This document shows positions 62,201-64,000 of a stretch of DNA of 64,000 bases, piece by piece. Origin of the DNA: Escherichia coli (GTDB taxonomy: Bacteria; Pseudomonadota; Gammaproteobacteria; Enterobacterales; Enterobacteriaceae); NCBI RefSeq assembly GCF_030384885.1, contig NZ_CP128613.1. One strand, 5' to 3'. A program made the position numbers. Every line of letters begins with the position of its first letter. Position 1 is the first letter of the stretch.

Positions 62201-64000
62201 ACGGTAATGCCCGAATTCCGGCTTACGAAATGATCCGTTTCTCGGTCAACATTATGCGCGGCTGCTTTGGCGGCTGCTCTTTCTGCTCTATTACCGAGCA
62301 TGAAGGTCGCATTATTCAGAGCCGTTCGGAAGATTCGATCATCAACGAGATTGAAGCGATCCGCGACACCGTGCCAGGCTTTACGGGCGTGATTTCCGAT
62401 CTCGGTGGGCCAACTGCCAACATGTATATGTTGCGCTGCAAATCGCCGCGCGCCGAGCAGACTTGCCGCCGTTTATCGTGCGTTTACCCGGATATTTGTC
62501 CTCATATGGACACTAACCACGAACCGACGATCAACCTCTATCGCCGCGCGCGTGATCTGAAAGGCATTAAAAAGATCCTCATCGCTTCCGGCGTGCGTTA
62601 TGACATCGCCGTGGAAGATCCGCGCTATATCAAAGAGCTGGCGACCCATCACGTTGGCGGTTATCTGAAGATTGCCCCGGAACATACCGAAGAAGGGCCG
62701 TTATCGAAGATGATGAAGCCGGGCATGGGCAGCTATGACCGCTTTAAAGAGCTGTTCGATACTTACTCGAAACAGGCAGGTAAAGAGCAATATCTGATCC
62801 CGTATTTCATCTCCGCACACCCCGGTACGCGTGATGAAGATATGGTGAATCTGGCGCTGTGGCTGAAAAAGCATCGCTTCCGTCTCGACCAGGTACAGAA
62901 CTTCTACCCGTCGCCGTTGGCTAACTCCACCACCATGTATTACACCGGGAAAAACCCGCTGGCGAAGATTGGTTACAAGAGTGAAGACGTCTTCGTACCG
63001 AAGGGCGACAAACAGCGTCGTTTGCATAAAGCGTTGTTGCGTTACCACGATCCGGCAAACTGGCCGTTAATCCGTCAGGCGCTGGAAGCGATGGGTAAAA
63101 AGCATCTGATTGGCAGCCGTCGTGATTGCTTAGTGCCTGCGCCAACCATTGAAGAGATGCGCGAAGCCCGCCGTCAGAACCGCAATACCCGTCCGGCGTT
63201 GACTAAACATACGCCGATGGCGACCCAGCGTCAGACACCTGCTACGGCAAAAAAAGCGTCGTCTACGCCATCTCGCCCGGTGAATGCTGGCGCGAAGAAA
63301 CGCCCTAAAGCGGTGGCAGGTCGTTAAGTGAAATGTGCCCGGCAGCAATGATGCTGCCGGGAAATTTATAACCTTGGTTTATAAGGACTGTTACGAACGT
63401 CTAAGCGGTAATGCGCTCTTGCTGTTTCGTCTTTAACTTGCTGAATTTCCGGACGCAGGGCGTCAATATCCTGTTGCAGTTGATTAATTTTGTTATTCAA
63501 TGCCTGAATATCATGTTCCAGGTGTTCAATTTTGGCATTGCTGGTACAGCCAGCAAGACACAGCGCCAGCGGAATGGATAAGATAAGTTTGTTCATTATG
63601 AATTCCAGAACCGTCATTCCGCATACATACGTAAGCAGCGCAGGCAATCGAAATAGTCCTGGGCGTCAAGGCGCGTATTGGCTCTGTTAGCTTCGGATTT
63701 TGCCGCATAGATTTGCGGGCGTAATGCTTTCATATCCTGCTCAAGTCGGGCAATTTTGGCATTTAACGTCTGTACGTTGCTCGCCAGCTGATTGACCTTT
63801 TGCTCATTGACGCAGCCGCTGAGCAAGCAGGTTGCCAGAACAACAGCCCCCACGGTGAAAATCGTTTTCATATAGTATTCCCTTTTATTTATTGTTCCGA
63901 CTAATTGTTATTTTATTCAGCTCATTGCTTTAATCTGGCGGCGGTTTTCACCTCAATCTGTTTAAGTAGGCTGCCGCTGTTTGGACGGATAAAATCAGCG

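Follow-up and report, generated by a model that had tools for sequence, protein, structure and literature searches.

The stretch of Escherichia coli DNA analysed here (64,000 nucleotides; hereafter the window) closes with two neighbouring minus-strand genes for small Lpp-family lipoproteins, set between yqhG and ygiQ. A preliminary description had placed two adjacent open reading frames at 63366-63871 on this strand; the open reading frame list, the sequence and the translation agree, and these coordinates bracket both coding sequences exactly. The first gene, yqhH (63614..63871, minus strand), encodes an 85-residue Lpp-family prolipoprotein according to both the open reading frame list and RefSeq, while the second (63366..63596, minus strand), for which the working name lpp76 is used here, encodes a 76-residue prolipoprotein of the same family (RefSeq WP_001037461.1, 'LPP leucine zipper domain-containing protein'). 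A 17-nt spacer (63597..63613, minus strand) runs from the yqhH stop codon (TGA) to the lpp76 start. Upstream on the same strand lies the 3' end of yqhG (63922..64000, minus strand; YbjP/YqhG, DUF3828 family), truncated by the end of the window, and ygiQ (61108-63327, plus strand) converges on lpp76, with the GC-rich hairpin CCCGGCAGCATCATTGCTGCCGGG (63338..63361) standing between the two. A tblastn search found no further Lpp-like open reading frame elsewhere in the window.

The extent of lpp76 depends on the choice of start codon. The mechanical open reading frame list gives 63366-63647, from a TTG at 63647 (93 residues), and some databases hold an 83-residue form starting MTVLEFIM; both were set aside in favour of the 76-residue form starting at the ATG at 63596, since RefSeq annotates that form and the orthologs are equally long. 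Translation of this form yields the signal peptide MNKLILSIPLALCLAG (63549..63596, minus strand), the lipobox LAGC (63546-63557, minus strand) and a predicted lipidated Cys17, so that the RefSeq form reads MNKLILSIPLALCLAG followed by a mature N-terminus CTSNAKIE.... The heptad-repeat (coiled-coil) segment AKIEHLEHDIQALNNKINQLQQDIDALRPEIQQVKDETARAHYRLDVR (63393..63536, minus strand), supported by heptad a/d positions and an AlphaFold2 monomer, leads into a non-helical C-terminal tail, NSPYKPRL (63369..63392, minus strand), whose last residue is Leu, not Lys. In YqhH, the signal peptide covers residues 1-19 and is followed by Cys20, with the lipobox LSGC at 63812-63823 (minus strand).

Immediately 5' of lpp76, the spacer offers a weak GGA as its only Shine-Dalgarno element, and a promoter scan of 63200-64000 returned 0 sites. 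As the spacer is without a promoter-like site, its sequence suggests that lpp76 is co-transcribed with yqhH. The hairpin has a folding energy of -21.5 kcal/mol (z = -6.5) and is kept at the 3' end of ygiQ in K-12 (even though lpp76 is missing there), in E. whittamii and on two metagenome-derived contigs, L005 and L006, which are described below. It is probably a bidirectional terminator, missed by a simple terminator scan because its T-run is weak. An Rfam search of 63000-64000 gave only matches lying far below the gathering scores.

Family membership and anatomy of the two proteins

The upstream gene was correctly named as yqhH from the start. Its product carries the same protein accession as that of K-12 (WP_000848528.1) and matches the NCBIfam YqhH equivalog NF007428 over its full length (197.7 bits against a cut-off of 120). 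Relative to K-12 yqhH, the gene has 19 synonymous and 0 non-synonymous changes, and a search of 5,426 complete E. coli genomes matched it in 5,415. Gene conversion by lpp was considered as the origin of odd synonymous patches in the yqhH of the window; comparison by eye with the lpp coding sequence gave no match. Mature YqhH has Val at the +2 position and ends in ...LRMYAE, that is, with a terminal Glu and without a terminal Lys.

The assignment of both genes to Lpp-like lipoproteins, also made in the preliminary description, is sustained by Pfam, by the core lipobox and by the heptad core. Both proteins pass the gathering threshold of Pfam PF04728 (LPP, 29.1), with 47.9 bits for YqhH and 42.1 bits for lpp76. 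In BLASTP against K-12 Lpp (its sequence coming from the lpp gene of a K-12 record), YqhH gives an E-value of 7.9e-23 at 50.7% identity and lpp76 one of 1.0e-21 at 45.2% identity, and phmmer aligns lpp76 with solved Lpp structures from the lipidated Cys to Tyr56 (E = 3e-13). The likeness of both proteins to Lpp is far beyond chance. The heptad a/d residues read ILILILILIVTAL in lpp76, VLVLILMLIAAAL in YqhH and ILVLVLVMVAAAL in Lpp, and in lpp76 the 3-4 heptad repeat runs on unbroken, its a/d core being hydrophobic. The AlphaFold2 model of lpp76 (a monomer, built on a 31-sequence family alignment) predicts a single helix over residues 7-68 and then a non-helical 8-residue tail, with block-mean pLDDT of 90-93 for residues 31-60. 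Mature Pro33 of lpp76 falls inside the predicted coiled coil; it is present in YqhH as well, but not in Lpp.

The lipoprotein signal of lpp76 gave a divided outcome on formal checking. A rule-based check found a short, positively charged n-region with one Lys and an h-region of 13 residues with a mean Kyte-Doolittle hydropathy of 2.4. The core lipobox ([LVI][ASTVI][GAS]C) is present in both proteins, reading L-A/V-G-C in lpp76. YqhH also matches the strict PROSITE PS00013 pattern and the G+LPP pattern, while lpp76 matches neither, owing to Cys or Tyr at -4. The signal peptide and lipobox of lpp76 nevertheless align with those of Lpp, and this alignment supports processing of lpp76 as a lipoprotein. 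The residue at +2 is Thr.

The C-terminal ends and the family models set lpp76 apart. The protein ends in ...PYKPRL, and the C-terminal Lys of the murein lipoprotein (NF011925) is replaced by Leu in lpp76 and by Glu in YqhH. Against NF011925 itself (major outer membrane lipoprotein, cut-off 108 bits), lpp76 scores 71.4 and YqhH 83.1, both below the cut-off, and lpp76 also falls below that of the YqhH equivalog NF007428 (53.8 bits against 120). Being under both NCBIfam cut-offs, lpp76 is neither YqhH nor a canonical Lpp.

Proposed role and comparison with known Lpp-family proteins

With moderate confidence, the locus is read as two co-oriented, probably co-transcribed genes for Lpp-family outer-membrane lipoproteins downstream of yqhG, namely the E. 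coli-wide yqhH and an accessory paralog, lpp76, both encoding Lys-less, non-tethering rods. Each precursor would be exported by Sec and lipidated at the lipobox Cys via Lgt, LspA and Lnt. Delivery to the outer membrane would be Lol-dependent, given that the +2 residues are Thr and Val rather than Asp, the inner-membrane retention signal. The mature proteins are expected to form a parallel alpha-helical coiled coil of ~50 residues, presumably with the oligomeric state of the Lpp trimer. Attachment of Lpp uses the epsilon-amino group of its C-terminal Lys (restated in 10.1101/2025.11.13.688167); without a terminal Lys, neither lpp76 nor YqhH should be joinable to meso-DAP by the L,D-transpeptidases LdtA/B/C, and each would remain a 'free-form' rod of the Lpp type throughout. 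Such a rod would assemble either with itself into homotrimers or with Lpp or YqhH into mixed ones, and would in this way dilute or tune the tethering of the outer membrane to peptidoglycan.

Comparison with Lpp (Braun's lipoprotein of E. coli; PF04728, PDB 1EQ7) is instructive in this respect. The two proteins share the signal peptide and lipobox, a mature N-terminus of the form C-[ST]-S-N-A-K-I and a 3-4 heptad repeat of ~50 residues whose a/d positions hardly differ, their mature lengths being 60 residues for lpp76 and 58 for Lpp (overall identity to Lpp 45% for lpp76, 51% for YqhH). They differ in the coiled-coil Pro (ALRPE in lpp76, AMRSD in Lpp) and at the C-terminus, where Lpp ends in -YRK and lpp76 in -YKPRL, so that no attachment of the latter by L,D-transpeptidases is expected. 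Further, lpp76 occupies another locus, is AT-rich and is lineage-restricted, whereas Lpp is universal and highly expressed. YqhH resembles lpp76 in being adjacent on the same strand, in belonging to PF04728, in carrying an LRP(E/Q)I motif and in lacking a terminal Lys, and both are candidates for non-tethering Lpp-like coiled coils. Their tails are dissimilar, that of YqhH being Cys-rich, while the mature part of lpp76 holds no Cys except the lipidated one and ends in NSPYKPRL.

A parallel is provided by Salmonella LppB, likened to lpp76 by description because it, too, comes from a second Lpp-family gene in tandem and has a variant C-terminus. It is reported to assemble with Lpp into heterotrimers and to reduce the cross-linking of Lpp to peptidoglycan (bioRxiv 10.1101/2025.11.13.688167; PMC12681736), and the authors of that preprint propose that the Lys-less YqhH may act similarly (10.1101/2025.11.13.688167). 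The differences are considerable, as LppB keeps its terminal Lys (-RICK), is still cross-linked, though weakly, and has a redox-active Cys, while lpp76 is Lys-less; moreover, the LppB gene lies at the lpp locus in tandem to lppA, and lpp76 lies between yqhG and ygiQ. As the core residues of Lpp are almost unchanged in lpp76, an LppB-like modulator of tethering would be the most economical hypothesis for its role. Several observations speak against a strong role for lpp76, namely its weak GGA, the lack of a promoter-like site, the unmatched strict lipobox pattern and its dispensability in >99% of sequenced E. coli.

Distribution, orthologs and history of lpp76

The second gene was not familiar from K-12 and had been offered as possibly unannotated; it is indeed absent from K-12, but it is annotated in RefSeq as WP_001037461.1 or WP_001037462.1 in all 18 carriers. 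Missing from K-12 is precisely the DNA that begins right behind the yqhH stop codon (TGA) and ends right before the lpp76 stop codon (TAA). Among 5,426 complete E. coli genomes, only those 18 carry lpp76, always at this locus, and it is missing from the other 5,408 without replacement. The protein cluster comprises 31 sequence variants on >2,000 public contigs, all of its members being Escherichia, under database names ranging from 'hypothetical protein' to 'murein-lipoprotein' and 'Major outer membrane lipoprotein Lpp'; one variant (P0003) has a 14-residue in-frame deletion. A search of the accessible literature for the lpp76 accessions and product name found no paper.

At 100% identity over the stretches tested, the window matches the chromosome of E. 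coli 2013C-4282, and all 18 carriers are found among the 21 genomes nearest to the window at glnE-hldE, 40 kb away. Two of these carriers, 2013C-4282 and EC42405, belong to Escherichia cryptic clade I (PMC10100065), and with this assignment covering 2 of the 18, lpp76 appears to be a clade I trait within sequenced 'E. coli', as the carriers make up 18 of those 21 nearest genomes. Absence or disruption in close relatives would have spoken against a real gene; instead, lpp76 is intact in all seven genomes inspected (the window and six others) and annotated in 18 of 18. The related strain 2017.09.02CC has the K-12 arrangement without lpp76, and the gene is likewise absent from E. coli sensu stricto; at least two further Escherichia lineages lack it in their representative genomes.

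A local duplication had been offered as a possible origin of the second gene, but a recent one is not supported. Identity of lpp76 to YqhH is 43.8% and to Lpp 45.2%, and orthologs of lpp76 lie beside ygiQ elsewhere, on one contig without yqhH or yqhG; a recent tandem duplication of yqhH is thus rejected. A word-indexed protein search with lpp76 gave 3 matches only, in an exhaustive HMMER search no sequence beyond the lpp76 group exceeded ~54% identity, and lpp76-specific peptide patterns run against 100,044 species representatives recovered no true ortholog, only 82-residue paralogs in E. whittamii and Escherichia sp. E1V33. Orthologs with 70-71% protein identity are carried by the two metagenome-derived contigs, L005 and L006, which probably represent other enterobacterial genera. 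The gene order is dkgA, a CarboxypepD_reg-domain gene, lpp76 and ygiQ on L005, without yqhG or yqhH, and yqhG, a yqhH-like gene, four inserted genes, an 82-residue Lpp paralog, lpp76 and ygiQ on L006. On both, the 3' end of lpp76 abuts this same hairpin in front of ygiQ, and the gene is preceded by a strong Shine-Dalgarno sequence (AGGAGG on L005, AGGAAG on L006). Nucleotide identity to the window is 83.8% for lpp76 plus ygiQ of L006 and about 77% for lpp76 plus the 3' fragment of ygiQ of L005. The product of the CarboxypepD_reg-domain gene of L005 has a lipobox-like N-terminus (LQSGC).

These sequences bear the mark of purifying selection. Against the L005 and L006 orthologs, dN/dS of lpp76 is 0.20-0.35, and the C-terminal motif NSP[YF]xPRL is kept in all orthologs, in which the lone Lys near the C-terminus of lpp76 (YKPRL) is Ser. 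The mature protein does not vary among seven carrier genomes; the two protein alleles differ solely in the signal peptide (C13Y and A15V). On account of its orthologs beside ygiQ, of dN/dS at 0.2-0.35 and of the kept NSP[YF]xPRL, lpp76 is, as judged by these comparisons, old, constrained and mostly lost. It sits against the 3' end of ygiQ and would have been retained in a minority lineage of E. coli.

These data bear directly on the alternative that lpp76 is a decaying relic, with a reading frame still open in clade I, little or no expression and no function, the loss being complete in other E. coli. Its absence without replacement from nearly all complete genomes, the weak Shine-Dalgarno sequence, the missing promoter-like site and the low GC3 all favour such decay, as do the deletion in variant P0003 and a 1-nt deletion that shifts the frame of the L006 ortholog. 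The latter lies in an A-run, however, and the yqhH-like gene of the same contig has a similar homopolymer frameshift; because both lie in homopolymers on one contig, they are probably sequencing errors. As the frame is intact in all carriers examined, the mature sequence is invariant there, and the heptad core and C-terminal motif are kept across genera under the dN/dS given above, a relic is considered unlikely, and lpp76 as an accessory, constrained paralog of the non-tethering kind is the preferred reading.

The surroundings of the gene have a more complicated history. An identical lpp76-less junction is common to K-12, E. whittamii and Escherichia sp. E1V33, so that vertical retention in clade I needs either a long-lived polymorphism or introgression. 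In E. whittamii and E1V33, a different, 82-residue Lpp paralog sits between yqhG and yqhH, and this paralog also occurs in E. ruysiae and other unclassified Escherichia. GC3 is 40% for lpp76, 40% for the E. whittamii paralog and 62% for ygiQ, and the lpp76 orthologs are equally AT-rich; the low GC3 of lpp76 could reflect low expression, silencing or foreign origin. The ygiQ of the window is about equally far from those of K-12 (dS 0.25) and E. whittamii (dS 0.31), and some carriers have an lpp76 with no nucleotide difference from the window although their yqhH departs from its counterpart there at 15-18 of 258 nt. The lpp76 region is finely mosaic, and the yqhG-ygiQ interval is a small hot spot of gain and loss of Lpp paralogs.

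On these grounds, lpp76 could have come into clade I from another enterobacterium, through horizontal transfer or homologous recombination, instead of by vertical retention, and the yqhG-ygiQ interval would then be a hot spot at which mobile, AT-rich genes of the Lpp type insert. The AT-richness of lpp76 and of the 82-residue paralog of E. whittamii relative to their neighbours, the empty junction of three Escherichia lineages, the near-equal ygiQ distances, the identical lpp76 beside divergent yqhH and the lineage-dependent contents of the interval (L006 has three Lpp-like genes and the four-gene insert) all speak for such a transfer. Nevertheless, no donor came to light, and outside E. coli the closest orthologs are the 70-71% identical ones; the flanks are without mobile-element genes or repeats, and the indel is exactly gene-sized. 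In addition, comparison of the window with L006 gives a dS of 0.83 for lpp76 and 1.09 for ygiQ, a similarity that fits co-divergence and counts against recent transfer. Arrival by transfer is regarded as doubtful; clade I may have kept the old gene vertically or regained it by recombination.

That lpp76 is a functional murein lipoprotein, tethering the outer membrane to peptidoglycan like Lpp, is highly improbable, for although its N-terminus (C-[TS]-S-N-A-K-I), its Lpp heptad core, an aromatic residue aligned with Tyr56 of Lpp and the older database names would suit that role, the terminal residue is Leu in every ortholog, the nearby Lys gives way to Ser in orthologs, the score on the NCBIfam major outer membrane lipoprotein model is well short of its cut-off (71.4 against 108 bits) and Lpp is attached via a C-terminal Lys (10.1101/2025.11.13.688167).

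Paralog variation and significance

E. coli contains more Lpp than any other protein. According to the LppB preprint, nothing else joins the outer membrane covalently to the cell wall, and Salmonella LppB shows that minor Lpp paralogs can tune this tethering through mixed trimers (10.1101/2025.11.13.688167). The 82-residue paralogs present in E. whittamii, in E. ruysiae and in unclassified Escherichia (for example, WP_191774000.1) share with lpp76 the interval between yqhG and ygiQ, membership of PF04728 and an AT-rich composition. They are 51.5% identical to lpp76 and likewise lack a terminal Lys, ending in -HPPRW where lpp76 ends in -KPRL (Pro-Arg plus a hydrophobic or aromatic residue), and their tail, GRWPDGIWAHPPRW, is longer than that of lpp76. 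The positions and lineages differ, since the 82-residue paralogs sit between yqhG and yqhH and lpp76 between yqhH and ygiQ.

A bolder and distinctly speculative extension of the non-tethering reading would treat the yqhG-ygiQ interval as a cassette with changing contents, namely the Lys-less Lpp paralogs YqhH, lpp76 and the 82-residue type, which form mixed trimers with Lpp and so set the degree of covalent tethering lineage by lineage. Their conserved C-terminal P-R-[LWY] tail would then serve for docking, or as a decoy, towards a periplasmic partner such as the L,D-transpeptidases. If true, cryptic clade I would differ from E. coli sensu stricto in envelope mechanics.

Taken by itself, lpp76 is an uncharacterised, lineage-restricted member of a well-known family, and both genes of the locus are already annotated. 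Nothing at the yqhH-lpp76 locus points to a new mechanism; lpp76 is a modest evolutionary curiosity and otherwise ordinary. It is conserved across genera and yet kept in a small minority of E. coli genomes. Should its tie to the clade be confirmed, lpp76 would be a small candidate marker of cryptic clade I, and it would add an extra natural Lys-less variant with which the idea of tuned tethering can be tested.

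Gene content of the window

Relative to K-12, the window differs in gene content at several intervals. Between ftsP and ygiQ it carries two extra genes (58632-60992) that are not in K-12. The product of one is a hypothetical protein of 474 aa and that of the other an ankyrin-repeat protein of 224 aa; each gave only sub-threshold Ank_2 matches. Conversely, between ygiV and ygiS (around 52013-52019) the window lacks the toxin-antitoxin pair mqsR-mqsA that K-12 has there, which leaves a clean gap of ~0.9 kb in comparison with K-12. A chaperone-usher fimbrial operon, comprising genes for a hypothetical protein, a chaperone, an usher and a fimbrial-like protein, occupies 31645-36625. 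Since this operon has no nucleotide match to the ygiL-yqiGHI operon of K-12 and adjoins ribB instead of glgS, the fimbrial segment has undergone replacement as well as rearrangement compared with K-12. Outside the stretches compared with K-12, an IS200/IS605-family element is annotated between ygiM and ygiF (19261-20931), comprising ISEc41 tnpA and a gene for a TnpB/InsQ RNA-guided endonuclease.

Lpp-like genes in the yqhG-ygiQ interval

Lpp-like genes also occupy this interval in other lineages. E. whittamii (L007, 4001-4249) and Escherichia sp. E1V33 (L008, 3959-4207) harbour, between yqhG and yqhH, an AT-rich gene for an 82-aa Lpp paralog with the C-terminus ...WPDGIWAHPPRW, which is a different gene from lpp76 (the 76-aa prolipoprotein gene adjoining yqhH in the window, 63366-63596, minus strand). 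A metagenome-derived contig with an lpp76 ortholog (L006) contains three Lpp-like genes within the interval. Several of these paralogs, which are devoid of the C-terminal Lys by which Lpp is joined to peptidoglycan, end in Pro-Arg followed by Leu, Trp or Tyr. Separately, the ENA protein P0003 is an lpp76 variant with a 14-residue (two-heptad) in-frame deletion, placed between repeated ALN/ALR motifs, which would shorten the coiled coil while keeping the heptad register.

Substitution pattern of yqhH and lpp76

Between the window (63614-63871, minus strand) and K-12, yqhH differs by 19 synonymous and no non-synonymous changes (dS 0.44). Eleven of the 19 cluster at gene positions 96-126 and 201-240, and these are absent in K-12 as well as in the six other inspected lpp76-carrying E. 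coli genomes, three of which have an lpp76 nucleotide-identical to that of the window. Taken together, the lack of non-synonymous changes, the window-specific synonymous clusters and the identity of lpp76 in three carriers indicate a recombination breakpoint between yqhH and lpp76 and very strong purifying selection on YqhH.
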